Shown one piece after another: positions 3,461-18,759 of a stretch of 64,000 nucleotides of DNA; positions within the stretch are counted from its first letter, which is position 1, and each line of letters starts with the position of its first letter. Under the pieces are notes generated by a model. The model was not told the origin of the DNA. It saw only the letters and a list, made by a program, of their open reading frames with translations, and searched no databases. The stretch is from contig JACPAN010000013.1 of assembly GCA_016180815.1 (NCBI GenBank), forward strand, positions 54,939 through 118,938. The letters are read 5' to 3'. The translations under genes were made by a program, and so were the position numbers. Origin of the DNA: Elusimicrobiota bacterium. Lineage in GTDB: Bacteria > Elusimicrobiota > Elusimicrobia > JACQPE01.

Positions 3461-3979
3461 ATGAAACGTATTGCGATCGCTATTTCGTTATTCTCTCTGG
3501 GTTTAGGCGTAGTTTCAGCGGACGATCACAGAGAATCGCTTGCCGATTGGCAGCGCCTTGATTTGCGTATCGATCAAAGGACCGGCTCACGCCCATCGCC
3601 CCAAAGGCCGTTGAACGTTCGATTAACATATTTCCATCCCGAACACTCTATGCCATCAACAGGATTAGGGGGCATCCCTCGCGAAGAACAGGCAACTCCG
3701 GAAGTCGGCCGATTAACCGTCACTCAATACAGAACAGCCGAGCGAAAAGGATTAACATGGGGTCTGGTTGCCGGAGGCGTCGGATTTACCGGAGCTGCCG
3801 CCGCAACCTGGAGATGGGCCATGCGCGGGCGCGCGGGAGATTTTGATTTTCGGCCTGTCTTTGCCATCCCGGCGAGCGCGTTGGCCGGAGTCGCTGCCGC
3901 AACCGTCCTGGGCGTGGTGACTTATTCATTAGTCAAAAATCACCACATCAATCGAATGACTAAGGAAGGCGTCCACTAG
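3461..3979 (+). CDS. hypothetical secreted protein
   Basis: RBS-like AAGGGGA upstream of ATG 3461; signal-like MKRIAIAISLFSLGLGVVSA; C-terminal hydrophobic segment. Confidence 0.55.
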   Translation: MKRIAIAISLFSLGLGVVSADDHRESLADWQRLDLRIDQRTGSRPSPQRPLNVRLTYFHPEHSMPSTGLGGIPREEQATPEVGRLTVTQYRTAERKGLTWGLVAGGVGFTGAAAATWRWAMRGRAGDFDFRPVFAIPASALAGVAAATVLGVVTYSLVKNHHINRMTKEGVH

Positions 3980-4596
3980 CGCGGTTTGAATTCGGACGGG
4001 CACCAGATCGAAGTTATTTCGTTCTCCATCAGAAGGCGCGGCACCAACTGATCGGACCGGCCGTCATCTATATACTCAACCTGATAACGGGTCCTCGTCA
4101 ATCCAAGACGCATCTGCGCCACGGGGACGGCAACGTCGCCGTTTAACACAAGCATTTCGCCGGCCGTTAATCCTGAAACCGTCCATTCCCGCGCATCATC
4201 CGTCCCTTCCATAGGTTGCCAAGAACCATCCGGCCTCAGATGCTCCTGCCAAGCTGAAATTTTTAAATTGCGGTAAGAACGCGATGTTTTGTTATGAAAA
4301 AAAATCTGATAACGCATCACATCGCCCGCGTAGAAAAATTCGTATTCTCCCCAATGGAGGCGGGGGAATACTTGGGATAAATCCTGGGTCATGTAGCCGG
4401 GCATCAAACGGTCATGGTGGTAGCGCAGGCCGCCGCCGTCAATGACGCCCCGGCCCCATGAGTCCAATAAACGAATTTTATGCTCAAGAACCGGGATGGA
4501 AGCGCGAACGTTGCCGCCGAGAGGGGAAATCTGATTAACGACTCCCGATGCCGACGCGTCGGCGGCCAACAAAAGAAAGAGAAAAACCCTACCCAT
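3976..4596 (-). CDS. hypothetical secreted protein
   Basis: Minus-strand ORF with signal-like N-terminus MGRVFLFLLLAADASA; no recognised domain. Confidence 0.5.
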   Translation of the reverse strand: MGRVFLFLLLAADASASGVVNQISPLGGNVRASIPVLEHKIRLLDSWGRGVIDGGGLRYHHDRLMPGYMTQDLSQVFPRLHWGEYEFFYAGDVMRYQIFFHNKTSRSYRNLKISAWQEHLRPDGSWQPMEGTDDAREWTVSGLTAGEMLVLNGDVAVPVAQMRLGLTRTRYQVEYIDDGRSDQLVPRLLMENEITSIWCPSEFKPR

Positions 4597-4660: not shown

Positions 4661-7060
4661 CTAGCGAGGAAAATTCTTATCGAGGGTTTTTTTGGCCAGC
4701 GCCTTGATTCGCGCGCTTGAGGACTCTTGGACAATGGCTTCAAGAGCGGGACGAACCGCCGGATTTCTCGACTCTTCAAGAATTTCCAGCCAGCGTGATT
4801 TCATTTCTTCGCTGAAGGAATTCGGATGAAGGACGAAATCTTTGACGAAACCGGCCCCTTCGGCCGAATTTTTAATCACTTCGTTGTTCATCAGCCGCCA
4901 AGAAATGCCGCCCACGATTTCGTTATTGGCATCCGAACTTTTGACGATGCGCTCAAGCTCGGGCAAAACGCCGGGATGGCGCACCATGCCGAAGGCCAAT
5001 AAAACGGTCTTTTTGAAAGGGTACCCTCGCCGGCCGTGCTGATCGAGCGCTGTTTTGAGCGCCTGGATGGACTCTTGGTCCGAAAAACCGGCTATGCCGG
5101 AGGAAGCTCCGGAAAGAATATCAAGCGGCAATTCTTGATCGCTTAAGAGTTCTCTAAGGTATTTGCGGCCGGCCTGATCCGTTGATTTGCCCAACAAAGC
5201 CAACGCGCGGGCCCGGACCAAGGTTTGCCCCTCAAGATCGGAGGAAGGAAGGCCGGCCGGGCCTTTTGCAAGCTCCAAGAGAACGGGGGTTAAATCATCG
5301 GGATAACGCGTCCATTTGCTGGTCAAAAGTTTGTCCAGAAGCCCGTGGCGGACATAAGGTGAAGGGTCAATTTTCAAGGCCAAAGAAAGCGTTTCTTTGG
5401 CCTTTGGCGTCAAATCCTCAAGTTTTTCGGCTTCGCGGGATACCCATGTTTTAGCCAGAGCAAACAAGGCTTGGATGCGGGCGATGGGATCAGGGTCGTG
5501 CAGCGCCTGCAGCGACCATTTTTCCTCGCTTGTCCTGGGTCTCGAAAGCTTGACCAAGGCAACCGAACCTGGGTTCCAGGTGATCCACTCCGGCTGCGCG
5601 AGTAAATCAAAATCAGCCGACCATTCTTTTCTATTGATTAAAATAATTTTCTTTTCATGGAATTCCGGAGGAGTCAAACGATGGAAAACCACCGGAATTC
5701 GAAAGTCAAAAACGGTCGTATCCTCGGCATGATTGGGGCGTTGTTTCATTCTCAACTTGATTTTTTTCTTCGAATCATGCCAGCGCTCCTCGACTTCGAG
5801 GATCGGATACCCGCGCGCCAACAGCCAGCTGTCCACGAACCCTTGAAGATCAAGTCCCGAGGCGTTCTCCATGGCCGCCATAAAATCTTTGTATGTGGCG
5901 TTGTTTAAAGCGAATTGGGTAAGGTATTCATTTAAACCTTTTCTAAACGCCTCGCGCCCAATATAGAAATCAAGCATCCTCAAGACCTGTTCGCCCTTGG
6001 TGTAATTCGTGCTGTCGAAGGCGTCGTCCGGAGTGGGCAGTTCCTTGGAAACAATCGGGTGGCTTCGCGGTCCGTCTTCCTGGCGGAAATAACTTTCCCA
6101 TGTGCTCAAGACGGTTTCAACCACCGCAAATTCGTTGCCGAAATAGTCCTCGGTGGCGACGGTCTCCATATAGGAAGCGAAGGCTTCATTGAGCCATAAA
6201 TCATCCCACCATTTCATGGTCACGTAATTGCCGAACCATTGATGAGCCAATTCGTGCGTGACGACCGAGGCGATGCGAAATTTTTGGATTTTGGCCGTCG
6301 GGTCCTCCAACGTCATGGCCGAATCCCTCATGGTGGTCAAGGTCGTATTCTCCATGCCGCCCCAAAGGAATCCCGGCAAGCCGACCATGGCGTAACGGTT
6401 CCAAGGGTATTTAATGCCGTAAAAATTTTCAAAAAAAGGCAGGGCTTTCTTCAAAACGTCCATCGCGAATTCGGCCCGCTCGCGTTTGGAAGGCGACGTG
6501 TAAATGCTCATGCCCGCGCCTTGGACGTCGGCGTTGAGTTCGCCGAATTTGCCGACGACGATATTGACCAGGTAAGTGCTGTGGGGTTTTTCCTGAACCC
6601 AGCGGACGCGCCGCAGCTTCCCGGCGTTTTTAATATCGACGATCTCATCGGCGACTTTGCGGCCGTTGGAAAAAACATCGTATTTCGGATCGACTTCAAC
6701 GGTCGTTTCCGTCGTCGCCTTATCGTAAGGCTCGTCGTTGCAGGGGAATAACTTGCGCGCCGCCACGGGCTCAAGATGCGTAAAAAACATCATCGGCCGC
6801 GTCGGCTCATCGGGATCGGCGACCTTGAAGAAACCTTGGTGTTGGACATCGGCTTGGCCGCCGTAGGCGATGGTGACGGCGATCTCTTTACCTGCCGGTT
6901 GAGAGGCGTTGAAATGGACGGCAGCGGCGTCCAGACGCATGGCAATGGCGTAATGTGAAACATCATACGGACGGTTTTTTGGGGTAAACAAGGCGCCTGA
7001 GGGCATGGCCATGGTCAGCAACGATAATAGAAAAGACAAAGCACGAAATTTTGCCCTCAT
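4661..7060 (-). CDS. M1-family zinc aminopeptidase (aminopeptidase N-like) with C-terminal HEAT/ARM-like repeats; signal peptide
   Basis: Contains GGMEN exopeptidase motif and HELAHQWFGNYVTMKWWDDLWLNEAFASY (HExxH-18x-E zinc site), both M1 hallmarks; signal-like N-terminus. Confidence 0.88.
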   Translation of the reverse strand: MRAKFRALSFLLSLLTMAMPSGALFTPKNRPYDVSHYAIAMRLDAAAVHFNASQPAGKEIAVTIAYGGQADVQHQGFFKVADPDEPTRPMMFFTHLEPVAARKLFPCNDEPYDKATTETTVEVDPKYDVFSNGRKVADEIVDIKNAGKLRRVRWVQEKPHSTYLVNIVVGKFGELNADVQGAGMSIYTSPSKRERAEFAMDVLKKALPFFENFYGIKYPWNRYAMVGLPGFLWGGMENTTLTTMRDSAMTLEDPTAKIQKFRIASVVTHELAHQWFGNYVTMKWWDDLWLNEAFASYMETVATEDYFGNEFAVVETVLSTWESYFRQEDGPRSHPIVSKELPTPDDAFDSTNYTKGEQVLRMLDFYIGREAFRKGLNEYLTQFALNNATYKDFMAAMENASGLDLQGFVDSWLLARGYPILEVEERWHDSKKKIKLRMKQRPNHAEDTTVFDFRIPVVFHRLTPPEFHEKKIILINRKEWSADFDLLAQPEWITWNPGSVALVKLSRPRTSEEKWSLQALHDPDPIARIQALFALAKTWVSREAEKLEDLTPKAKETLSLALKIDPSPYVRHGLLDKLLTSKWTRYPDDLTPVLLELAKGPAGLPSSDLEGQTLVRARALALLGKSTDQAGRKYLRELLSDQELPLDILSGASSGIAGFSDQESIQALKTALDQHGRRGYPFKKTVLLAFGMVRHPGVLPELERIVKSSDANNEIVGGISWRLMNNEVIKNSAEGAGFVKDFVLHPNSFSEEMKSRWLEILEESRNPAVRPALEAIVQESSSARIKALAKKTLDKNFPR

Positions 7061-7473
7061 CCGCCGGATTCAGGCGATTCAGCTTCCGGCTCTGCGTCGT
7101 CGATCACGGAAAAATTCACCGTCTTTAACAGGGAACCGTTTTCATCGAGCACTTCGACTTTCCACCGGCCGGTATGATTCGAATGGACGGTTTTGCGGCT
7201 CCACGTGCGCCATTTGGCGGTTTTGACGTCCAGCGCAATGCGCATGACTTGGCGATCCTCGTAATACCAGACATGCGTGATTTTCGTAGGAACGGCGTGG
7301 CTTGTGACCTTTGTCCAACAGACAAGAGCGCCGACTTCGGCATCAAAATGTTCAGCCGGCTCAACGGGCTGGCGTGCGACGACATCTTTGGCGATCAAGG
7401 CGTCAATGATTTCTACCGACTGGCTTGTCGCCCAGGTTAAGGATGTTAGAAGGGACAAAATGAGCATCATCAA
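7057..7473 (-). CDS. hypothetical small secreted protein (possibly DUF2914-like), 4-bp overlap with the M1 peptidase gene
   Basis: Signal-like N-terminus MMMLILSLLTSLTWATS; stop overlaps start of the downstream peptidase gene (operon-like). Confidence 0.55.
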   Translation of the reverse strand: MMMLILSLLTSLTWATSQSVEIIDALIAKDVVARQPVEPAEHFDAEVGALVCWTKVTSHAVPTKITHVWYYEDRQVMRIALDVKTAKWRTWSRKTVHSNHTGRWKVEVLDENGSLLKTVNFSVIDDAEPEAESPESGG

Positions 7474-7664
7474 AATTCTCCTGTTGATTAACTTTAGAAG
7501 CGGTCTCTGATAAGCATCATAGAATAATGAAGGACGGGGCGATAGACGCCGTTTAATGCCGTAAAAAATAAGGGGACTTAAAGACCCGTTGAAAATAGGA
7601 CCTAAGTCCCATGTTTTTTAGCCTAAAATGGGTCAAAATAAAGCATGTTTTGGTGGAGGTTACA

Positions 7665-8162
7665 ATGAAAAAACGAATATATTTGAGTTTTCTGGCGAGC
7701 GCTATATTATGCGCTCCTTATAGGCCCACGCAGGCTGAAGGATTAACTGAAAGTTTTGTTACCAGCGTCGTTGCAGTCGGCGATTGGGCAAGCAGCCTCA
7801 TGAAAAGGGCTTCCTCCGCCGTAGGCAGCGCCTATCTTTCTTTATCAGGAGTCCCAATTAGGGCAACAATCAGCGGCGCAAGCGATTCCAGCGCTACAGG
7901 GGTTACGGCCAGCACGGGTCATCCCAGTTTGCCGTCAGCCCCCTCGTACGAACGCATCGGCACCGTGGGTTACGCCGCATCGCCCTATGAACGTATTGGG
8001 ACGGTCGGTTATGCCTACCGCAGTGGGTACGAACGCATCGGCACCGTGGGTTTTGTAGAACCTGCCGAAGTCAGACCGCAGCGCATGAGCAAGGTGCGCC
8101 GGGCCTTCGGCGAAGGACGGGATGCTTTAAGTGCACCCGTCATGCCCGTCCGGCTCCCTTAA
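7665..8162 (+). CDS. hypothetical secreted protein with tandem YERIGTVGYA repeats
   Basis: MKKRIYLSFLASAILCA signal-like start; three tandem copies of (S)PYERIGTVG(Y/F) encoded at about 7948-8060. Confidence 0.5.
   Translation: MKKRIYLSFLASAILCAPYRPTQAEGLTESFVTSVVAVGDWASSLMKRASSAVGSAYLSLSGVPIRATISGASDSSATGVTASTGHPSLPSAPSYERIGTVGYAASPYERIGTVGYAYRSGYERIGTVGFVEPAEVRPQRMSKVRRAFGEGRDALSAPVMPVRLP
7948..8054 (+). repeat. intragenic tandem repeat (three units, outer two 25/25 identical)
   Basis: tacgaacgcatcggcaccgtgggtt at 7948-7972 and 8030-8054 with a diverged middle unit. Confidence 0.7.
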
Positions 8163-8191: not shown

Positions 8192-8980
8192 TCATTTCGG
8201 AAAGAGCCAAATCGTTTCTCGGTATTCTTCGCCGATCTCATCAGCTTCATCTTCCATATCAACCGCTGAGTTTTTATTGAATCTTCTCCAAAACGCGTCA
8301 ACAACAAAGCTTTTATTGATTTGCATGGTATGACCGAATTCATGCGCGCGCAAATACTCATTTTGCATCCAGCCAGCCGAATCAAAATGAATGGTTGCGG
8401 CTGATGCGGTGTAGGCTGTATATGCGTTCCCCGTAGGTTTGCTGACGTTATATTCGCTGGGAACCGGGCTTGGCAATTGAACCAGATAGCCGCCTCCTAG
8501 GCCCAAGCGAACCCTGGCTCCGCTGCCCATCAGCGCCACGTGAACGCGATTGCTCTCAGGCGAGATCCATTGCCACAGAGGGTCAATCGCGACGCTCGTC
8601 CATGAGAGGAATAAATCAACGGATGTCGCCCAGGCATTCATCAGCAATTTGACCGGCGTGATTACAGAGGTCCAATAATCGCCGCGCAACGCGGCTTGAA
8701 CCCCGTCATAATAAATTTCTCCGGAACTGGCCGCCAAAACAACCGGCGCAGCTATGGCCAGCTTGCCCCAATTCCAGTAAGCATTAGCCAAACCCTTGGC
8801 GCCTTCAACAATCACAGGCCGCGCCGGATCAGAGACTTCTTTTTTCTTTGCATCGAAAGACAAGGCGCTGCTGGAATGCAACCCCATGAAATCGTCGCCG
8901 GCCAAAGCGCCTGAAGAAGCCTCCACCATCAACAAGGCCGCCGGAAACAAAATCGTTAATTTCTCAAGATGCCATTTCAT
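8192..8980 (-). CDS. hypothetical secreted protein with C-terminal HExxH motif (possible zincin-like peptidase)
   Basis: Signal-like N-terminus; LRAHEFGHTMQ near C-terminus. Confidence 0.5.
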   Translation of the reverse strand: MKWHLEKLTILFPAALLMVEASSGALAGDDFMGLHSSSALSFDAKKKEVSDPARPVIVEGAKGLANAYWNWGKLAIAAPVVLAASSGEIYYDGVQAALRGDYWTSVITPVKLLMNAWATSVDLFLSWTSVAIDPLWQWISPESNRVHVALMGSGARVRLGLGGGYLVQLPSPVPSEYNVSKPTGNAYTAYTASAATIHFDSAGWMQNEYLRAHEFGHTMQINKSFVVDAFWRRFNKNSAVDMEDEADEIGEEYRETIWLFPK

Positions 8981-9170
8981 GCCGCGCTGCCTACTTCTTA
9001 TTATTATTGTGCCGACTTTAAACTATTTTGTCGTGGGTCTTTGAGGCAATCTTACCTGGGACGAAAGACCGGTAAAGACCAGCTTTATCATAGGGGAGCA
9101 CTTGCTCTACTCCAGATTGCCTGATGGCGCGACAAACAAAAGCCCGTTAAACTCATAAAGAGGAGGCTTT

Positions 9171-12100
9171 TTGCTTAACAGTCACTGGCGCCTGCCGTTT
9201 TTGTTGATCTTGGCTGTTGCCTTGCCTGCGCCTATTATTCTGGCTAATGAGGAAAGGCAAAGCCAATACCCCGAAGATGATGGCGACGACGGCGACGGCC
9301 GGCAAAGCCAGTACCCTGAAGAACCGGAAGGCTTCGACTGCGCGGCTGATCCTTCATGCCGCGCCGCAGCTGAATCGAGGGGCGAAGACCCCGGCTCCGT
9401 CTCCCAACAATTTCTTGAGGATTATTTAGCCGGACGCATCCCCGGCCATAGCCCGCCTCCCGATAGAAGTTCCCCGGGAACTGCCCCTGGCCCAAGCGCG
9501 GACCCATCGGCTGCAGGGCCAAGCACGGAAAGGGGCAAGGCTCTCGATGAAGGCAGAAAAGCCATGGCTGAGAAAGCGGCTTCCGGCGATGTTAGAGGCG
9601 GACACAGCGGCTTAAGCGGAACATTCTCCGGCACCGGCCGTCCCCCGGGATTCGAGGAGGAATTGGGAGCTGCCGCTCATTTGGAGCATACCTTGGGCGT
9701 CGCCGCAGCGCCTAAAATTCCCGGCGCTCCTAAAATCGAACGGCCGGAACTTTATACGGGCGAGACAGCGCCGGCCGCGGCTCCCGCCGGTACCGTAGCG
9801 GCTCCACCCGAAGCCAAGCCCGCTCTCGCTGATCTCTACAAAGCGCCGACGGCGGAAGGTCTAAAGGCCGCCTTGCCTTTAAGTCCATCGGCTGATTTTA
9901 CGCGAGAACGGGACTCATTGACCGACAAATTGGCCGGCCGCGCTGTATCCGCCGTCGAAAAATTAGGCAATGTCGAACTGGCCGGCAAGCTTCATGCCCT
10001 TATGGCTATGACCGATTCCCATGAACGGGCGGTGCTCCTGCGAGAAACATTGGGCGAAGCCGACGCATTAATTGAAACGACTTATCGGGCCAAAATTTGC
10101 GAAACCTTCAAAGGCCTGCCTAAAAAAGAAAAAGCTTGTCTGTCCGGTGAATTATCCAAGGATGATCTGACAAAAGCGCAAAGCATTGCGGCTAAAGAAA
10201 ATCCCGAACTAGCTCTTTATATTAATCAAAAAAGGGCCTACCAAACATTCCTGGAGGGCGGCATGAAAGACGGCCGGCTGGCTCTTGGCGACCGGCTGGA
10301 GCCTTGGGAAATTGGCCTGAATCCAGCGTCAGGGGCGGACATACGCATCGAGAAAGACGCCACCGCTATTGCTGGAGTCGAATTTTTGGGCTTTAAGATT
10401 AAAACCAAAGATGGGACTGAAATTTTTGAGGGAACAAGGGCCGGAACAGACGGCCTCGAAAAAATCAAAATCATCCGCAGTCCGAGCGGCGAAGTAAAAA
10501 CCGCTGTTTTGATCCTGCGCACGACCAAAGACAAAAAAGGCAAAGAGACTGAAGAAATCGTCCGAAGTTCCGTTGAAATCAAGGACAAAGACGGCCGCCT
10601 GGTTGAAACGGAAAAATACGATAAAAGCAAAGGCTTGGTGGAAAAAGAATGGTTTAAAGAAGGCAAAAAAATTAAATCCCTGGAAGAAAGGACCGCTAAG
10701 GGCGTCAAAACCGTCACGCATAAGGAATTCAATCCCAAGTCAACGGCCAAGGACCCGCCGCCCAAGCTTGTGGTGGTTGCGGAATTTAAATTGGAAAAGG
10801 GGAAAGAAAAAGAAATTAAAAGAACGATCTATAAAGACGATACGGAAACTGTCATCATGCCTGACGGCTCGGCCACCGTAACCAACAAAAAATTTGATCC
10901 CAAGCGTCCCTGGAAATACATGAAGGGTAAAATTTCCGGCGAAGGCTTTTTACAAACTGAGATTGCTTTTGGCGAGGCGGGCGTAGATTGCGCTGTCACC
11001 GGATCAACCTCAAAATGCACGATTTTAAGAGGCAAAACCGTCATTGCCGACGGCAAGGCTGAATTCCGTCCTGACGTCATCATTTCTCCAGCGGGCACTT
11101 GCCGGGGGGTCATTGATGAAAAAGGCGCCTGCAATTCGCCCGAGGAATACCGGCCTAAGGAAGGCCCAGGTTTTCGGATGCATGGGCCGCATGTGGCCGA
11201 ATATTTTGAAGTAAGCCCCGGCGCCGATGGCAAAGAAATAAGGACCGGGCTGATGGCAAGTTTAATCTCGGTAAACACGCCCGGTGAATCCTTATCAATG
11301 GCCAACAGTGTCGGCAAATTAATGGGCTTCGATGAAGGCCGTATCAAGGCCATGTCCAATTGGATTTATGACGGCGCTAATCTGTGGCGCATACACAATC
11401 CGGCAAGCAGTCTGGCCAGGATCAAACTCAAGCCCGAAGAATCACCCTTTCGCCTTTGGATTGATCTTAAATCCGGCGAAGATATCAAAGACAAGTCCAT
11501 GATTCTCTATTTTGACAACGCAATGGGCAAAGACCGGCGCGTTGAAAGCGCTCGATTTTTGCTCGCTACCAAACGTTTTGAGTCAGAGGCCCCGGGCGCG
11601 GCTCTGGTGGTTTATGCGCCGCTACATCTAGACATCAATGACAAACCCGTTGGGCCGAAGCTTGATGAAGCAGGTCTTTTGAGATGGAGAGAATACCCCG
11701 CTGATCATTGGAACTGGAACTATGTCCGGTGTTGGGAAACGGAGACCAAGGGCGATCCGAGCTTGATGGAAAAATATGCGGATGCAGGCTCAATGACGCT
11801 GTCTCATGCCAAATTTTTGGTGGAACGAGAGGCCGGCAAAGGATGCCGCGGCAAAGAAATTTCGCGAACGCCCATCGGTAAGCCGGTAACCGAGAAAATT
11901 AAAGTCGAAAAGAGCATGGAGGAGTTCGTCAAACTCAGGAAATTGGAAATGATGAAGCGCAGAATGAAATCCCCGATGGAAGAAGGGCTTGAGTGGGCGA
12001 TGGATAAGAGCGCCGCCCTAGGCCGGGGCACTATCGAAGGATTTAAGGCGGGGGGCTTAGCCTGGGCTGCCATCGCTTCTGAAATGACCGGTGATAAAGA

Positions 12101-14654
12101 AACATCCGCCGCATACGGCCTGGGTGTTTATGCCTCTCTTTTGAGAACCGGCGCCGTGTATACGCCGGATGAGATTCTCGCCAAGGTCAAGGCGGATAAA
12201 AAAGTCTTGGTTTTTTTGGATGCCGAGGTGCGAGCCGGACGCAGCGACGCCTACAAAGCGCTTCGCGGGCCGGGGGCAACGCCTGAATCACTGATCGCCG
12301 CTAAAAAAATGGATAGCGCGCCGGTGACGGATGCCGAACGCTTGGCCCACCTGCGCAAATACGGCACCGCGGAGCATATCCTTGAACGAGCCGAGGAAAC
12401 CGGATCAGCGGCTCTTTATGCGGCCGGCGGAGCCGATGCTTTCATCACCACATTCGCCGAAGGCTGGCCCATGATGATGGGTTTCACCGGGCTTGAGGCC
12501 ATTGAGCGAGTCAAGCGCTTGGGCTCTTTGGCCAAAGCCGCCACCTTAACCAAGGCCGCCGCAGGCGCATATATGACATCGGGCCTCATCATCGGCGGGG
12601 TCAGTTATGTGGGCGAGTTCGCTGACGCAGCCGGCCGTGGCGATGCTGCGGACATGGTGAAAGCCGCGGCCACAGCCGCCGCTGATTTTGGTTTGGCCGA
12701 TGTGGTCATTCATAAAGTTTTCGGGGTTCATTCGAGTGAAAAAGCGACTATGGAAGCCTTGCGTAAAGAACGCCTGGCCCTTGAAAAAGACTCCACGCCG
12801 ACCGCGGAACTGATTTTTATCGAGATTCATGATTTAGTCGCGGGGAAACGCGATTTTGAAGGCATTATGAAAGCCTACGGCTATGAAGGCCCGGTCAGCC
12901 TGGACAACGGCAAAGGCATTTTGACGGTTCGCCCCGGCGATGTCGGGACCAAAGATTTAAAAGCCATGCTGATCGCCAAAGGCATCCGCGTTTATGATTC
13001 CTGGCCCAAGGAATGGAGTCCGATTTTTGATTCCAAATCCACTGACTCAAAAACAGAACCCATCGATACCGGAACCACCAAGATTGAAGATAAAGCTCCT
13101 CCCGGCCCAGGCGATGTTGCGATATCTGCATCAGAGACGGATATCTCTTTAACAATTAAATTTGAAAAATACGGCGACGCGCTGCGCATGAAATACATCA
13201 TCGGTGATTCTTCGGTTCATGATCGGACGCTACGTGTCAGAAAGGATACGCCGGCGGACATTGTTTCGGATCTAAAAAGAGTGGGCTATGCCATTGAAAT
13301 CATCGAGGCTCTCTCGCCGTCGGGTCCGACCGCCAAAAAAACTCCAAAACCAAGCTCCGTCGCTGATCCGGATAAAACAAGCCCGGCTGTGCCCAAAGCT
13401 ATGGCTGAAAAAACTTTAGATTCGGACAAAACCCTGGTTGACGCGCCGTCTGCGGATGCCGCATTTAAAGGCTTTCTCCCACCTGAAATTGCAGCCCGCC
13501 GTATCGAGGCTTTTGCCGAAGCCCGCAAACACATCTTTGGATCGGCAGGTTCAAGCGACGCTTTCCTTCGCGTCAGGCCCGATATTCCTTGGGATAAATA
13601 TGAAACGTTGAAAAAAGCCGGCTTCGACGTGATCGTGGAAGGGGAAATTACAGAGCGTTCAAGCGGAGATACTTCGGTTGGCCCGGCTCCCGGGCCGCCC
13701 GCCGCCAAGAAGCGCGTGATGCTTGAGCGCGTCAAAAGACCGGATGGAAGCTGGGAATATGTTGATGCCTCGGGTAAAAAATTTATCCTTGATGATCCCA
13801 GGCATGAAATCGAGGCAGGGACGCCCATCGCCGGTGGCATGAGCAGGGGCAGGGGCAGTTCCAGAGAGAAATTGCTGGTGGACTGGTCCAAGGACAAGGC
13901 TTTAAACGATTTATATACCGAAATTTTAAAGCCTTATGAAGAGCGCGGCCTTGACGGGGCTGAAAAAACAGCGCTTTTAGGCAAGGTCTATGAAAAAGTT
14001 CGCAAAACGATTCCGGCTAGTCTAACCGCGGAAGCTGAAATCAAAAGCAAGTTTAAAAACAAAACCGTTTTGATCGGCGAGGCTTGCGTCGGCTTTGGCG
14101 GCGTTTGCCGGCACCAAGGTATCGTCATAGCCGCCATTGTCGAACGATTAACCAAAGAGGGGTACCTCAACGGCGTTGCCAGTTATGTGCGGGGCCCCGG
14201 CCATGGATTTGCCGCCTATAGGTCTTCCGATGGGACCTGGATTATCCTGGACGGGGTGCAAAATTATTTCGGCCTGGCCAAAGATGCTTATTTTATCGGT
14301 GAAGACTCATCGGGACGAGGCCTTTTTCCTTATGCCGACTATCTGCCTAAAGAGACCAAACCAAGCGAACCTGCTGCCAAGACAAAACCAGCGCCCAGGC
14401 GGGATGCGATGATCATGGAGCCTGTCTTTTATCTCGATCCATTAACATCCCCCAAAGCAGACAAAACCATTAAGACCATCGAAACTAAATTTAAAGATGA
14501 CGTTATGATCCATACCGATAAAGAAACCGGGCTGGTCAGAATTTATGCCGAATCCGAAGTGGTGAAAAAAATTCACGAGCTTCTCAAGGGTGACGGAATC
14601 GAAATTTTATCGGAAGAAGCATATGGCAGAAAAAAAGTTCTACGCTCGCCGTAA
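9171..14654 (+). CDS. large secreted multidomain protein (1,827 aa) with C-terminal transglutaminase-like / papain-fold Cys-His-Asp signature
   Basis: TTG at 9171 four nt after AGGAGG; signal peptide; acidic RQSQYPE repeats; Pro/Ala/Gly-rich low-complexity region; Lys/Glu-rich repeat region; C-terminal GEACVGFGGVCRHQG...GPGHGFAAYRSSDGTWIILDG (C...H...D spacing as in transglutaminase-like cysteine peptidase cores). Confidence 0.75.
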   Translation: MLNSHWRLPFLLILAVALPAPIILANEERQSQYPEDDGDDGDGRQSQYPEEPEGFDCAADPSCRAAAESRGEDPGSVSQQFLEDYLAGRIPGHSPPPDRSSPGTAPGPSADPSAAGPSTERGKALDEGRKAMAEKAASGDVRGGHSGLSGTFSGTGRPPGFEEELGAAAHLEHTLGVAAAPKIPGAPKIERPELYTGETAPAAAPAGTVAAPPEAKPALADLYKAPTAEGLKAALPLSPSADFTRERDSLTDKLAGRAVSAVEKLGNVELAGKLHALMAMTDSHERAVLLRETLGEADALIETTYRAKICETFKGLPKKEKACLSGELSKDDLTKAQSIAAKENPELALYINQKRAYQTFLEGGMKDGRLALGDRLEPWEIGLNPASGADIRIEKDATAIAGVEFLGFKIKTKDGTEIFEGTRAGTDGLEKIKIIRSPSGEVKTAVLILRTTKDKKGKETEEIVRSSVEIKDKDGRLVETEKYDKSKGLVEKEWFKEGKKIKSLEERTAKGVKTVTHKEFNPKSTAKDPPPKLVVVAEFKLEKGKEKEIKRTIYKDDTETVIMPDGSATVTNKKFDPKRPWKYMKGKISGEGFLQTEIAFGEAGVDCAVTGSTSKCTILRGKTVIADGKAEFRPDVIISPAGTCRGVIDEKGACNSPEEYRPKEGPGFRMHGPHVAEYFEVSPGADGKEIRTGLMASLISVNTPGESLSMANSVGKLMGFDEGRIKAMSNWIYDGANLWRIHNPASSLARIKLKPEESPFRLWIDLKSGEDIKDKSMILYFDNAMGKDRRVESARFLLATKRFESEAPGAALVVYAPLHLDINDKPVGPKLDEAGLLRWREYPADHWNWNYVRCWETETKGDPSLMEKYADAGSMTLSHAKFLVEREAGKGCRGKEISRTPIGKPVTEKIKVEKSMEEFVKLRKLEMMKRRMKSPMEEGLEWAMDKSAALGRGTIEGFKAGGLAWAAIASEMTGDKETSAAYGLGVYASLLRTGAVYTPDEILAKVKADKKVLVFLDAEVRAGRSDAYKALRGPGATPESLIAAKKMDSAPVTDAERLAHLRKYGTAEHILERAEETGSAALYAAGGADAFITTFAEGWPMMMGFTGLEAIERVKRLGSLAKAATLTKAAAGAYMTSGLIIGGVSYVGEFADAAGRGDAADMVKAAATAAADFGLADVVIHKVFGVHSSEKATMEALRKERLALEKDSTPTAELIFIEIHDLVAGKRDFEGIMKAYGYEGPVSLDNGKGILTVRPGDVGTKDLKAMLIAKGIRVYDSWPKEWSPIFDSKSTDSKTEPIDTGTTKIEDKAPPGPGDVAISASETDISLTIKFEKYGDALRMKYIIGDSSVHDRTLRVRKDTPADIVSDLKRVGYAIEIIEALSPSGPTAKKTPKPSSVADPDKTSPAVPKAMAEKTLDSDKTLVDAPSADAAFKGFLPPEIAARRIEAFAEARKHIFGSAGSSDAFLRVRPDIPWDKYETLKKAGFDVIVEGEITERSSGDTSVGPAPGPPAAKKRVMLERVKRPDGSWEYVDASGKKFILDDPRHEIEAGTPIAGGMSRGRGSSREKLLVDWSKDKALNDLYTEILKPYEERGLDGAEKTALLGKVYEKVRKTIPASLTAEAEIKSKFKNKTVLIGEACVGFGGVCRHQGIVIAAIVERLTKEGYLNGVASYVRGPGHGFAAYRSSDGTWIILDGVQNYFGLAKDAYFIGEDSSGRGLFPYADYLPKETKPSEPAAKTKPAPRRDAMIMEPVFYLDPLTSPKADKTIKTIETKFKDDVMIHTDKETGLVRIYAESEVVKKIHELLKGDGIEILSEEAYGRKKVLRSP

Positions 14655-14667
14655 AAACGAAACCCTT

Positions 14668-14997
14668 CTAACGATCCCGGACTTTAATCTCCACGGAAGC
14701 GATGGCGTCAAGGGGAATGTAAACCTCGTAAAATTCCCTACCCGTCGGATTTTTAAGAACAACCGCATGAGAAGCGGCTTCTTTGACCTTGCCTGAATAC
14801 TCTTTGCCGCTCCGGAGATTGATATAAACGTGCAGATTCTTTTCAGCCGCCATCTTGAGAACGTCTTTTTGAGCATGCTCGGCTGAAACCGTCGGGGTTT
14901 CTTCCTTGGCGCCTTGAGCTTCAACGAAGCGTCCAAGGCCCAGCGCCGCGGCTGCGACCAATCCCAGAACAAGCCCTATTTTGATTGATTGTTTCAT
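14668..14997 (-). CDS. hypothetical small secreted protein
   Basis: Signal-like MKQSIKIGLVLGLVAAAALG; convergent with the large gene; start chosen at internal ATG of the longer ORF. Confidence 0.45.
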   Translation of the reverse strand: MKQSIKIGLVLGLVAAAALGLGRFVEAQGAKEETPTVSAEHAQKDVLKMAAEKNLHVYINLRSGKEYSGKVKEAASHAVVLKNPTGREFYEVYIPLDAIASVEIKVRDR

Positions 14998-15221: not shown

Positions 15222-15806
15222 ATGTTGTCAAGGATGAAAAAAACGCAAATCGGTTTAGCCGGCCTCATAATCGCCGGTTTATCAACCCAAACAGCGCTTT
15301 GGGCTGAATCAAGCCGTGAGGGTGAAGCCTGCGCCACGGTGAAACAGGAGCTTCGCAAAACACGGACGGCCACGGCCAAGATAGAGGGTTCTCTAGGCGC
15401 CTCAAGCAAGACGGCGGTCCGCCTAGGCTCGGCCTTCGGCGAAACCCGTGCCAAGGGGTGCAAGGGCACGGAATGTGTGCATGGAACCACCGATCCTCAT
15501 TTAGGAACTTTGCCCGTTCGCGTTGGAACGGCTGAGGCAGGAAAAAAGGCGGAATCCAAAAGCGTCAAGACAAAAACCGTCAAAACCGGTGTTTCTAAAA
15601 AGTCCGACAAAATGTCTTCAGGGGGCCGTCCGGCTGACCATGATTGCACTCATCGGCCCGAAGGATCGAGCCTGACCGGTTCCGCCGGGAAGACGGCAAC
15701 CGCTGCCGTAGAATCAGCCAAAAAACCGGCTGAACCAACAAATCCGGTTCCCTGGGGTAAAGGTTGTCGTATGATGGGCGGCGCCGTCACCTGCTGTTTT
15801 CCATGA
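15222..15806 (+). CDS. hypothetical secreted Cys-containing protein
   Basis: AAGGAGG RBS before ATG 15222; signal-like N-terminus; Lys/Thr-rich body; C-terminal CxxxxxxxxCC. Confidence 0.55.
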   Translation: MLSRMKKTQIGLAGLIIAGLSTQTALWAESSREGEACATVKQELRKTRTATAKIEGSLGASSKTAVRLGSAFGETRAKGCKGTECVHGTTDPHLGTLPVRVGTAEAGKKAESKSVKTKTVKTGVSKKSDKMSSGGRPADHDCTHRPEGSSLTGSAGKTATAAVESAKKPAEPTNPVPWGKGCRMMGGAVTCCFP

Positions 15807-16336
15807 AATTAAAGGTAATGAACCAAATGACTAAAACAAAAATGTGGATCGCGCCCGTTATTTTCTTGGCTTTTTCCCAGGCCATGGCTGACACAGACCC
15901 GTTAAAAACGTATGAGGCGACTACTAAGGTGATGGATGGGAAAGCGCCCAAGAAAGGCGTGGCAACTTCGGCTGTTAAGCCGGGGACTGCCAAGCCAAGC
16001 ACGGCCGCGCCCAAGACCCCGGCCAAAGCGGCGGCCTCAAAACCGGACCGGGCTTATTGCATCGCGCGCGTCAATGGCCTGGCTCTGCGCATCAGCGCTC
16101 TTGAAACAAAACGATTGGAATTCAAAGCTGCCAAAAAGGAGGGTGAGGCCATTGTGAAAAGTCTGCGCGAAGAGTACTGGGGACGTGCTTGGACAGAGGA
16201 AACACGTATCGCCGTTCATAAAGCCGAAGGAGCCAGGAAAGGAGCCGCAGATGCCCTTTGGTCAGCCGATCATGCTTTAGACGGGTTGCACAAAGAAATG
16301 GCCGCTCTCGATGAACGTTGCGGCTTATCAAAATAA
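15803..16336 (+). CDS. hypothetical secreted protein
   Basis: ATGA start/stop overlap with upstream gene; hydrophobic signal-like WIAPVIFLAFSQAMA; start ambiguous among ATGs at 15803/15818/15827. Confidence 0.5.
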   Translation: MKLKVMNQMTKTKMWIAPVIFLAFSQAMADTDPLKTYEATTKVMDGKAPKKGVATSAVKPGTAKPSTAAPKTPAKAAASKPDRAYCIARVNGLALRISALETKRLEFKAAKKEGEAIVKSLREEYWGRAWTEETRIAVHKAEGARKGAADALWSADHALDGLHKEMAALDERCGLSK

Positions 16337-16357: not shown

Positions 16358-17002
16358 ATGTCGCAAACTAAAAAAATCGCGCTTACGCTGGCCGCTTTTG
16401 GCCTGCTGGCGGGCTATGCGTCGGCCCAGGAGACAGCCAAGCGGGGCGGCCCTCAAGAGCCGAAAAAGACTTGGGCCGACTCTTCGAAGACATTCGATGG
16501 GAATGCGCCCCGCGTCAAAAATGAGGATGGCGAAGAAGCTGAGCCTCTCCGCATTGATGAAAGCGGGCTTGATCCCAAACGAGGCGCAGACGACGGGGAT
16601 GAAAAATATATCTGGGTAGATGGGGAGAAAAAGGAGTCCGAAGGCGGACCCACGACCCGCCAGGGCTATGATGAGCGCACGAGAACCCGGGGACGAAGGG
16701 ACAGGGGATCAAAGAACAGGCAAGTCAAACCTGAACCCAATGAATGCGGGCAATACGACCGGAGCAATCAGCGCTGCCGCCAGGGACGCGGCAAGCGCGG
16801 CGGCGAGCAACAACCGCGTTATGTGCCGCCCAAGCCCAATGAAGACGGCCAGGGAACGCCTGATGAACCGAGTGAAAACGAGCCTTCCCGGCCCAATAAT
16901 CCCGAGGAACGGCGGCCCAGGCAGGAATCGCCCAATAAGCCCAAGGAGAAAATTAAAATCGACCCCGGTCAGAGAAAACCGGGCAGCGTGATCTCCATTT
17001 AA
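16358..17002 (+). CDS. hypothetical secreted, highly charged low-complexity protein
   Basis: AGGAGG RBS; signal-like MSQTKKIALTLAAFGLLAGYASA; Arg/Glu/Pro/Gly-rich low-complexity remainder. Confidence 0.55.
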   Translation: MSQTKKIALTLAAFGLLAGYASAQETAKRGGPQEPKKTWADSSKTFDGNAPRVKNEDGEEAEPLRIDESGLDPKRGADDGDEKYIWVDGEKKESEGGPTTRQGYDERTRTRGRRDRGSKNRQVKPEPNECGQYDRSNQRCRQGRGKRGGEQQPRYVPPKPNEDGQGTPDEPSENEPSRPNNPEERRPRQESPNKPKEKIKIDPGQRKPGSVISI

Positions 17003-17022: not shown

Positions 17023-18759
17023 GTGACGACCAGCGGTTTCATTGATGCCGGTTTTGTCGCGATTGCCATGGCATCATTGGCGTTTGTCTTTTACTTTTCG
17101 CTGACAACCAACGCCTTTAAAACTGAGAACCGCCCGTTAAAACGCTACTTAATCACGGCGGCCGCCGCTTACATCAGCATATTCATCTGGGCGCCGGCCG
17201 GGCTTTTTATCCTGGGTCTGTTGATGGCGCTCCTGAGCGCCCTGGCGTCGGGGAGCGCCGATCCCTGCATCTTGCGTCTGCCGGTTAAACCGGCGCTCCT
17301 CGCGCTGAGCGCGGCGAATCTTTTTTTTGGCGTGTTGCTGGCACGCCGCTGGGCCGGAGCATTATCCGGCAGATTGATGAGTTTAAATCGGCGTTTGGCC
17401 AAAAAAAGCCTTGTCCTTGTTTTGTCGGTTGTCGCGTTATCTGTTGGGGGCGCTGCCTGGCGCGGGCATCCTTATGCTGACCACGGAGCAGGTTTGATGG
17501 CCAAAATGACCTGGCTTCTGGGCCATGGCGACGACGTACTTTATGCGACCATGTTTGCGGGCTGGGGCCATGTGTTCGGATGGGACCGGCAGGGTCTTGA
17601 AGATTTTCAACGCCTGGCCCGAGGGCAGGCGCCCCCCGGCGCCAAGGTTGCGCGCGCCGATGCCGCTAAAAAATACGTCGTGTTTTCCGACCTGCATCTC
17701 TTGGAGAAAGGGGCCAGGCACGATCATTTCAAAAACTGGAGCCGGGCCGGCCATGGCCCGGGCAATCATGAAATTTTTCACAGGGCGCTCGATTATTACC
17801 AAAAACACGAATTTTATCTCGTGGAAGCGGGCGACATTGAAGATTTATTCGTCAAAGCCCCCGGCTTCGGCAGGATGGCGAAGGAGCAAATTTTCGACGC
17901 TGTATTGGGACCGCTCGGCAACTATTTTGACGGCGCGGCGGAAAAAAAGGAACGCCTCCAAAAGCTCCGCGCCATAGCGCGCAACTACGCATCTCACTAC
18001 GAACATTTACGCGATTCTTTTTTTAAACACGGCCGCCTCATCAAACTCATCGGCAATCACGATGAGGCGCTGTTGGAACCGGAATTCTTGAATGTTCTGC
18101 GGGAAATATACGGAGGTCCCATAGAGGTTTATGAATACCTTGCCCTGGTCGATGATCCCGCTGTCTCCAACAGTCCGGTGCGCGCTGTGGTGGCGCACGG
18201 GCATCAATTCGATGTGATCTGCGCCATTGGCGCTGGGGATTTAATCGGCGAGGTTTACACGGAATCCCTGGCTTGGTTTGGAACCGGGGCGGACAGAGTG
18301 TGGCCGGGTTATTCAGCCCAAGAAGGCGGCTGGACCCAACGCATGCGCAGAGACTCGGGATTCGCCAATACCATTTCACGTTCTCCCAGTTTCTTTAAGG
18401 AAAAAAACGCGGTTGTGAAATGGAGACACATGAACGAAGACATGGCCGCAAAGGCGGTCACCGGCGCCGGCCCTGAAGCGCCCTACCTTGTCCTCGGCCA
18501 TACCCACGAGCCCAGGTTCCGGGCGGCGGACAAAAACGGCTCGTTGGTGGAAAAATACGTCAACACGGGGTCCGCCTCGCTCTATGAACAACTGGTTTGG
18601 GCCGTAGAAATCATCAACGGCCGGCCCGCCTTGGTCGCTTGGCGGACAAATGAACAAGGCGCATTGATCAAAACGCTCATGGAAGCAACGCCGGACGGGC
18701 GGCTTATCCCGGCGCAGGACAAGATATTGGCAGTTGCATCACCTGGAGGCAATCTTTGA
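17023..18759 (+). CDS. membrane-anchored metallophosphoesterase (calcineurin-like)
   Basis: Several N-terminal hydrophobic helices, then the ordered metallophosphoesterase motifs VFSDLHL, EAGDIEDL, LIGNHDE, VVAHGHQFD, LVLGHTHEP; GTG start inferred from ORF limit. Confidence 0.75.
   Translation: MTTSGFIDAGFVAIAMASLAFVFYFSLTTNAFKTENRPLKRYLITAAAAYISIFIWAPAGLFILGLLMALLSALASGSADPCILRLPVKPALLALSAANLFFGVLLARRWAGALSGRLMSLNRRLAKKSLVLVLSVVALSVGGAAWRGHPYADHGAGLMAKMTWLLGHGDDVLYATMFAGWGHVFGWDRQGLEDFQRLARGQAPPGAKVARADAAKKYVVFSDLHLLEKGARHDHFKNWSRAGHGPGNHEIFHRALDYYQKHEFYLVEAGDIEDLFVKAPGFGRMAKEQIFDAVLGPLGNYFDGAAEKKERLQKLRAIARNYASHYEHLRDSFFKHGRLIKLIGNHDEALLEPEFLNVLREIYGGPIEVYEYLALVDDPAVSNSPVRAVVAHGHQFDVICAIGAGDLIGEVYTESLAWFGTGADRVWPGYSAQEGGWTQRMRRDSGFANTISRSPSFFKEKNAVVKWRHMNEDMAAKAVTGAGPEAPYLVLGHTHEPRFRAADKNGSLVEKYVNTGSASLYEQLVWAVEIINGRPALVAWRTNEQGALIKTLMEATPDGRLIPAQDKILAVASPGGNL

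Follow-up and report, generated by a model that had tools for sequence, protein, structure and literature searches.

What kind of protein is encoded by the open reading frame (ORF) at 9171-14654 of a 64,000-nucleotide (nt) stretch from an Elusimicrobiota bacterium (contig JACPAN010000013.1; the whole stretch is called the window below), and what would its catalytic-looking C-terminal part do? A sequence-only reading of this DNA had taken the product for a secreted enzyme with a transglutaminase-like signature. We favour, with a probability of roughly 55%, a Sec-exported, modular protein of 1,827 amino acids (aa) that would present an active thiol enzyme, most likely a hydrolase. Its predicted layout comprises a cleavable or anchoring signal peptide, a long acidic spacer, a lineage-specific chassis of about 1,000 aa with disulfide-type cysteine pairs, short alpha/beta modules, and a putatively competent transglutaminase-fold domain near the C-terminus. 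The features of the C-terminal part are as follows.

13797 to 14315, plus strand: transglutaminase-fold Cys-His-Asp domain of an uncatalogued family (aa 1543-1715).
14106 to 14108, plus strand: TGC codon of Cys1646, predicted nucleophile, invariant (97/97), at the N-terminus of model helix 107-123.
14202 to 14204, plus strand: CAT codon of His1678, predicted general base (96/97), first residue of model strand 139-145.
14250 to 14252, plus strand: GAC codon of Asp1694, predicted third member of the triad (96/97), at the end of model strand 151-155.
14316 to 14420, plus strand: Pro/Lys-rich linker of 35 aa (aa 1716-1750).
14421 to 14651, plus strand: ferredoxin-like domain formed by the last 77 aa, from single-sequence AlphaFold and a structure search.

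The motifs singled out by the sequence-only reading, GVCRHQG (aa 1644), GHGFAAYR (aa 1677) and ILDG (aa 1692), are present where it placed them, with 32 residues from C1646 to H1678 and 16 from H1678 to D1694. They do not form the extreme C-terminus, however, as the linker and the 77-aa domain come after them. In the family alignment (A1, 97 sequences) the full Cys-His-Asp triad is found in 95 members, and one column alone, that of the Cys, is invariant. Arg1647, His1648, Glu1658, His1678 and Asp1694 are each kept in 94-96 of the 97. The spacing from His to Asp is 16 in 92 of them, and that from Cys to His ranges from 32 to 37 across the alignment. Of the 14 near-invariant positions the protein studied here retains 13; at 1680 it has a conservative W to F change.

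An AlphaFold2 model built with this alignment reached a mean predicted local distance difference test score (pLDDT) of 92.5 and a predicted template modelling score (pTM) of 0.90. In the model the Cys opens a 17-residue helix and the His and Asp lie on the two next strands, that is, the alpha/beta core that defines the superfamily, with the Cys at a helix N-terminus packed against a beta-sheet carrying the His and the Asp. Judged by the model, the domain belongs to the transglutaminase/papain fold with an intact Cys-His-Asp triad. The signature was thus correctly recognised by the sequence-only reading, which had proposed AlphaFold as a check and had named lack of similarity to papain or transglutaminase folds as the outcome that would speak against it; the model has that similarity. 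Single-sequence AlphaFold of aa 1510-1827 gave a poor enzyme domain (pLDDT about 50), and the last 77 aa folded confidently from the single sequence into a generic ferredoxin-like sandwich. The low root-mean-square-deviation best matches of the latter are procarboxypeptidase activation domains. A Foldseek search against the PDB gave zero significant matches. A suspected FHA remnant at aa 1515-1545 was ruled out: its FEIG...GH.IAGG stretch is part of the enzyme domain and is present in relatives that have no FHA domain.

A second cysteine, Cys1639 (14085-14087), lies seven residues before the catalytic Cys1646. Its column holds I, L, F or V in 76 of the 97 members, and Cys is not conserved there. 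From the sequence, a Cys1639-Cys1646 disulfide that masks the nucleophile is a possibility.

The search that defined the family used aa 628-1827 as a HMMER query against 1.84 billion cluster representatives and returned 270 proteins at E<=1e-3. Nearly all of them cover aa ~1547-1710, with G-V-C-R almost universal. The protein itself, across all 1827 aa, matches nothing in Pfam even at E<=1; this includes PF01841, so the PF01841 check that had been suggested for it came out negative. Its sole PHROG match is weak (E 0.013, C-terminal 60 aa), PADLOC returned zero, and a word-index homologue search with the full-length sequence retrieved nothing but the protein itself. At family level, the consensus scores 19.4 bits against PF01841 (Transglut_core; gathering threshold 23), and four of the 97 members reach E<=0.1. 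Against PF14381 (EDR1/CTR1/ARMC3 peptidase-like; threshold 27 bits) the consensus sequences score 21.1 and 17.8 bits, with 10/97 members at E<=0.1 and a best value of 0.0028. An artificial consensus of the 97 members scores 29.8 bits against PF04473 (DUF553; threshold 20.5), with E 4.6e-7 over the Cys-His-Asp region; the close-subfamily consensus gives 14.7 bits only. The other sub-threshold matches of members are to PF04473 (9/97), PF13471 (3/97) and NAT (2/97), so that the repeated Pfam matches of members are confined to the transglutaminase-like/NAT group, all below threshold. When the family alignment served as profile in a search of PDB sequences, the only matches were chance ones to SH3b domains. 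Sequence and model together lead us to regard the domain as a family of the transglutaminase-like superfamily that neither Pfam nor NCBIfam contains.

The ORF that carries this domain is real. It runs uninterrupted through 1827 codons and a stop from a TTG start, and the chance of so many stop-free codons at the base composition of the window is about 1e-35. The identical protein is listed at NCBI as [quoted passage not shown] (MAG, metagenome-assembled genome); it forms a singleton cluster and comes from a 180-kb contig. The open frame starts only at 9159, four codons 5' of the TTG, so no longer N-terminus is possible. The features at this end are:

9157 to 9166, plus strand: Shine-Dalgarno-like AAAGAGGAGG, with 4 nt between it and the TTG start (9171).
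9171 to 9245, plus strand: Sec-type signal peptide (aa 1-25), with a basic n-region (H5, R7), a hydrophobic core and a cleavage site predicted by rule between ILA and NE.
9246 to 9890, plus strand: acidic Pro/Ala/Gly-rich spacer (aa 26-240), probably disordered as judged by composition, holding the RQSQYPE duplication and the C57/C63 pair.

The TTG at 9171 is the sensible start, given AAAGAGGAGG and the position of the next in-frame starts within the hydrophobic N-terminal segment. The N-terminus, MLNSHWRLPFLLILAVALPAPIILA followed by NEE, is the sole strongly hydrophobic segment of the protein (Kyte-Doolittle (KD) value 2.2). The signal-peptide call is rule-based and found an n-, an h- and a c-region; the segment could instead be an uncleaved anchor. 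All 12 cysteines fall in close consecutive pairs (57/63, 310/323, 607/616, 644/654, 854/892 and 1639/1646), an arrangement reached in 6 of 200,000 random placements (p about 3e-5), and the pair 310/323 aligns with a Cys pair of the chassis relative P0144, described below. Such a pattern is what disulfide-bonded extracytoplasmic proteins look like in sequence. The predicted signal peptide, the complete pairing and a canonical signal peptide in P0144 (cleavage between TPALA and QND) all point to Sec export, in agreement with the secretion claimed by the sequence-only reading.

The same reading had described acidic RQSQYPE repeats followed by a long Pro/Ala/Gly-rich spacer. The spacer is there (aa 28-240: 13% Pro, 30% Ala+Gly, net charge -15), and so is the RQSQYPE motif in its acidic region. 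The motif nevertheless occurs in exactly two copies, at aa 29 and aa 44, so it is a duplication (nt 9255-9320) and no array; its score was reached in 4 of 200 shuffles.

Between the spacer and the enzyme domain lies the largest part of the protein, which can be divided as follows.

9891 to 12905, plus strand: conserved region, here called the chassis (aa 241-1245), collinear with the Elusimicrobiota proteins P0144 and P0086.
Within it, aa 241-400: segment with the pattern PEL.LY...PWE.G.
Within it, aa 401-600: Lys/Glu-rich segment, presumed beta by eye.
Within it, aa 601-940: middle region containing Cys pairs.
Within it, aa 941-1200: Gly/Ala-rich segment, only mildly hydrophobic (KD maximum 1.38), not of transmembrane (TM) grade.
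12906 to 13796, plus strand: short alpha/beta modules between Pro-rich linkers (aa 1246-1542), by eye.

P0144 (1545 aa, NCBI assembly GCA_038211115.1) and P0086 (1145 aa, Elusimicrobiota, CP096137.1) are the two matches among the 270 that covered the central region and not the enzyme domain, and both are collinear with aa ~184-1245 of our protein. The order common to the chassis proteins is a signal peptide, a Pro/Ala spacer, the PEL.LY...PWE.G segment, a region with [KAP]DG[ST][SE][RI]FEG and DGS.TVT, the Cys-pair middle region and the Gly/Ala-rich region, the last with the pattern ...LY..GG...P.M....G..A...VK..G...AA...MT.G...GG... Past this region and its short modules, P0144 and P0086 carry a C-terminal domain of the pattern QGQEGNC.PHAL ... 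HG.HAVAL ... V.TDSH, which is unrelated to the transglutaminase-fold family (hhalign probability 0.1%). A papain-like reading of that domain (Q-x5-C, "NC...H...D") was considered; Pfam, PDB-sequence and hhalign comparisons gave it no support. The known chassis members are three, with two C-terminal types. A word-index homologue search with the chassis alignment gave zero matches, and a metagenome-contig scan with it gave 397 pattern matches and zero relatives. The loci of P0144 and P0086 share no synteny with ours, their flanking genes being different; the gene downstream of P0144 (locus L012) is nadC.

The Lys/Glu-rich region had been called repetitive. Its composition (31% Lys+Glu in aa 401-600) and one significant internal repeat, KGVKTVTHKEFNPK and DGSATVTNKKFDPK, with a period of about 55 aa (0/200 shuffles), agree with this, but BLAST self-comparison and Tandem Repeats Finder (TRF) detected no true repeat array in the protein. 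A role of the Gly/Ala-rich aa 941-1200 in membrane insertion or translocation was dropped to speculation on account of its hydropathy peak of 1.38, below TM grade. The impression of four copies of a small alpha/beta module is a visual one, as BLAST self-comparison found no internal repeat, and no homologues of aa 1246-1542 as such were detected. At the P0086 gene (7033-11438 of locus L011, from CP096137.1), tblastn similarity to our protein begins at nt 7776, in the same frame and upstream of the annotated start at 8001, and a 343-aa gene at 7033-8064 overlaps it in another frame; the P0086 gene is probably mis-called (mis-started) or frameshifted.

The distribution of the enzyme domain was surveyed in the 150 best matches of the HMMER search. 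About 90 of these stand alone, with lengths of up to 350 aa and mostly of 200-290 aa; the few that are named come from the Candidate Phyla Radiation (CPR; Pacebacteria and Shapirobacteria). About 30 are large, from 1,000 to 5,237 aa, and the named ones are "FHA domain-containing" or hypothetical proteins of Omnitrophota. Around 20 of the 31 long proteins listed (29 family members plus P0086 and P0144) have a signal-peptide-like start. A genome scan with a 12-sequence close-subfamily alignment, using one genome per GTDB species, found seven loci, all in MAGs of Elusimicrobiota or Omnitrophota, with host ORFs of 1,173 to >4,157 aa, mostly truncated at the end of a contig. In this sampling the family is named only in CPR, Omnitrophota and Elusimicrobiota. 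Five long proteins (P0019, P0022, P0025, P0026 and P0028) have at least one hydrophobic segment of TM grade about 100-130 aa upstream of the enzyme domain, where the domain alignment is split by an insertion; their sequences suggest a membrane-embedded variant of the architecture. FHA, a phosphothreonine-binding domain, is usually thought cytoplasmic, so a protein with a signal peptide would be an unusual location for it. At least one such candidate is P0004, which has FHA beside the transglutaminase-fold domain and opens with a signal-peptide-like segment.

The genes around the ORF were inspected for partners. The upstream neighbour (8192-8980, minus strand) is divergent and the downstream one (14668-14997, minus strand) convergent, so the ORF appears monocistronic. 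The latter encodes a 109-aa protein with its own ribosome-binding site, GGAGGGAGG, and a signal peptide, and its stop lies 13 nt from that of our ORF. Its Pfam hints, to Hfq/Sm-like domains, are weak only (E 0.039), and the gene is not kept beside P0144 or P0086. Further genes around the ORF are those of an M1 aminopeptidase with HEAT repeats, an M19 membrane dipeptidase, a metallophosphoesterase-like protein and a flavin amine oxidase (4661-7060, minus strand; 20104-21195 and 17023-20075, plus strand), together with those of small secreted proteins of unknown function; beyond them comes a 6,071-aa ORF. With its peptidases and many small secreted proteins, the neighbourhood looks geared to the extracellular use of proteins and peptides. 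No tRNA or Rfam feature was found in the window, and the family and chassis profiles had no further match within it.

The 6,071-aa ORF (21331-39546, plus strand) begins 6.7 kb downstream. Pfam gives only three matches for it: a PPDK_N ATP-grasp domain, which is strong (2e-68; aa ~3703-4023), a PEP-utilisers mobile domain (aa ~3530-3634) and a weak ResIII/DEAD-like stretch (aa ~645-730). More than 5,000 aa are left with no Pfam match. A giant Omnitrophota ORF of the survey (L008) carries the transglutaminase-fold domain, and its end resembles a PEP-utiliser C-terminal region.

A short motif, ...[AG]xxF-D-G..., recurs 13-30 residues past the predicted signal peptide in at least seven small secreted proteins of the window that do not otherwise resemble each other. 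The ORFs concerned are:

39746-41074 and 41310-43409, minus strand: [AG]xxF-D-G motif.
44996-45544, 46668-47204, 47232-47810, 47768-48430, 49264-49824 and 16358-17002, plus strand: [AG]xxF-D-G motif.
15764-16336; 8192-8980, minus strand; and aa 55-57 of our protein (nt 9333-9341): weaker forms.

Examples are GATFDGARL, GARFDGSRI, NAIFDGGHS, EIFDGARW, RRIFDGGQQ and SKTFDGNAP. The expected number of exact FDG occurrences in 40 aa is about 0.007. Our protein has GFDC and P0144 has SFEG at a comparable distance. The motif may be an N-terminal sorting or maturation motif of the exported proteins of this organism.

The domain was compared with known systems. The families PF01841, PF04473, PF14381 and PF13471 of the transglutaminase-like superfamily have the same alpha/beta core, in which the Cys stands at the N-terminus of a helix and the strands after it bear the His and the Asp, and their G-V-C-R motif and C-x(31-36)-H-x15-D pattern match those of the family described here. 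In contrast, our protein and almost all family members stay below every curated cut-off, and the family has an N-terminal extension of its own (GG.S.GR...RE.I.VD...L...Y), a near-invariant Arg-His after the Cys, and Glu1658. LapG, a small stand-alone calcium-dependent enzyme that acts with LapD and LapA, offers another comparison among the LapG/BTLCP periplasmic cysteine proteases; however, LapD/LapA partners were not found near our ORF, and no family member matched the LapG/BTLCP Pfam model among the families listed. The Tox-TGase group includes type III secretion effectors of the AvrPphE/HopX type, Legionella lpg2408 and some RTX toxins (Zhang et al. 2012, PMC3482391). Our protein resembles it as a secreted multidomain protein with a transglutaminase-fold Cys-His-Asp domain at its C-terminus or close to it, signal-peptide delivery being one known mode (PMC3482391). 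It differs in its organism, in lacking a Pfam sequence match to those families, and in having no immunity gene and neither RHS nor other known delivery repeats. CPR-C4, a CPR-restricted, vasohibin-like cysteine protease of ~216 aa in the transglutaminase-like superfamily (PMC9108980), has the same Cys-to-His spacing of 32 (C61, H93). Legionella Ceg10 is a Cys-His-Asp acetyltransferase effector, a type IV secretion substrate that acts in the host nucleus with acetyl-CoA (PMC12773746); our protein is predicted to be Sec-exported and has no detectable sequence similarity to it.

Very large, mostly membrane-associated or secreted proteins are described from Omnitrophota and Elusimicrobiota (bioRxiv 10.1101/2023.11.21.568195; 10.64898/2026.06.07.730766; PMC10066038). 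The closest relatives of the domain lie inside proteins of 1,000 to >5,000 aa that start with signal peptides, and the window itself holds the 6,071-aa ORF; our protein is far smaller than these giants, and its chassis is not common to them. The signal-peptide-like starts of the long family proteins agree with the topology bias reported for long Omnitrophota proteins. In the parts of those three papers that term searches covered, no transglutaminase or FHA module is mentioned. Already known are the superfamily, with its papain-like classification, and the concept of secreted effectors with a transglutaminase fold (Zhang et al. 2012, PMC3482391). New are a family absent from Pfam and NCBIfam; its distribution over stand-alone CPR proteins and large exported proteins of Omnitrophota and Elusimicrobiota; the frequent pairing with FHA in signal-peptide-bearing proteins; and an Elusimicrobiota chassis with exchangeable C-terminal domains.

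In the mechanism that we propose, His1678, oriented by Asp1694, would activate Cys1646 at the helix N-terminus, and Cys1646 would attack an amide carbonyl of a protein or peptide substrate to form a thioester acyl-enzyme. Water would resolve this intermediate in a peptidase, isopeptidase or amidase, and an amine would do so in a transglutaminase. We prefer hydrolysis outside the cytoplasm, acting on envelope or surface proteins of the cell itself, of a neighbouring cell or of a host cell. Export, activity, the choice of hydrolase over transferase and the extracellular or inter-cellular target are what we infer, as are the labels "surface-deployed effector" and "cross-linking or proteolytic" given by the sequence-only reading. 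The fold supports cross-linking, autoprocessing and acyl transfer, the last as in Ceg10, as well as hydrolysis. A true transglutaminase, whose acyl-enzyme would be resolved by Lys or another amine and which would cross-link the envelope or surface layer of its own cell or glue the cell to a partner, shares the fold and the motifs; we consider it unlikely. Rather less probable is a peptidase acting in cis, which would cut the Pro-rich linkers of its own chain to release or mature parts of the exported protein. The stand-alone members of ~200-290 aa have nothing to process in cis, the domain stands near the C-terminus, the usual place of toxin and effector domains, and no cleavage motif was identified. 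The loss of catalysis altogether, leaving a binding module, is known from menin, protein 4.2, XPC/Rad4 and ARMC3, inactive forms that lost triad residues. With Cys, His and Asp conserved in 96-97 of 97 sequences, and all present in our protein, a dead module is the least credible of the explanations.

Two further alternatives seem to us very improbable. A classical polymorphic toxin against competing bacteria would combine a conserved region for delivery with an exchangeable toxin at the C-terminus and would come with a cognate immunity protein. The signal peptide, the conserved N-terminal and central region and the unrelated C-terminal domains among three homologues fit this description, and Tox-TGase is a known toxin class with Sec-dependent delivery (PMC3482391). 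However, no immunity gene follows on the same strand, the next gene being convergent (14668-14997) and that in L012 being nadC. RHS, filamentous-haemagglutinin repeats, markers of type 5, 6 or 7 secretion and a releasing-peptidase module were not found in the Pfam and NCBIfam searches of the protein or among its neighbours; the chassis has only three members with two C-terminal types, and the relatives' flanks show no synteny. The classical model fails because neither an immunity gene nor the known delivery modules (RHS, FilH, TPS, LXG, PAAR etc.) were found. An acyl- or acetyltransferase of the Ceg10/NAT type would be delivered into a host cell, where acyl-CoA is available; that an exported enzyme has no acetyl-CoA at hand speaks against such chemistry. 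The occasional NAT matches of members are outnumbered and outscored by those to transglutaminase-type families, and no translocation machinery or membrane-insertion segment was found, the Gly/Ala-rich region not being of TM grade.

Several observations weigh against the reading that we prefer, an exported thiol hydrolase. The protein has no significant match to any curated model in Pfam, NCBIfam, PDB sequences, PADLOC or PHROGs, and no secretion-system, immunity or adhesin-partner genes were found adjacent to it. Elusimicrobia are diderm, so a Sec signal alone brings the protein only to the periplasm. None of the 88 stand-alone members with an intact start has a hydrophobic N-terminus, and FHA domains lie directly before or after the enzyme domain in P0002-P0005, L006 and L007, our protein having none. 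The stand-alone members without signal peptides and the FHA-adjacent relatives indicate that the family is not intrinsically extracellular.

These results define a sizeable family (about 270 clusters at 50% identity), a probable thiol enzyme that Pfam and NCBIfam both lack. As sampled, it is confined to lineages whose biology is mostly inferred from genomes and which are suspected of living on or off other cells; ultra-small or host-dependent bacteria have been reported from CPR, Omnitrophota and some Elusimicrobiota. In the large and giant proteins of Omnitrophota and Elusimicrobiota, which are opaque otherwise, the domain is a catalytic module that can be annotated, and with its ~170 aa and a predicted nucleophile it therefore gives a concrete experimental handle on them. 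That proteins with a common chassis differ in their C-terminal domain hints at a modular evolution of effectors in Elusimicrobiota. Should the protein be a housekeeping periplasmic protease, the gain would be a useful annotation and nothing beyond. Tentatively, as a possibility that we hold to be doubtful, the G-V-C-R-H family may be a signature enzyme of CPR, Omnitrophota and some Elusimicrobiota, mounted in Elusimicrobiota on a hitherto unrecognised, Sec-exported delivery chassis with an exchangeable thiol-enzyme "warhead", which the Cys1639 disulfide would perhaps keep latent until a reducing compartment is reached. If this were true, it would represent a new kind of modular inter-cellular effector that cuts or remodels envelope or surface proteins of partner or prey cells.

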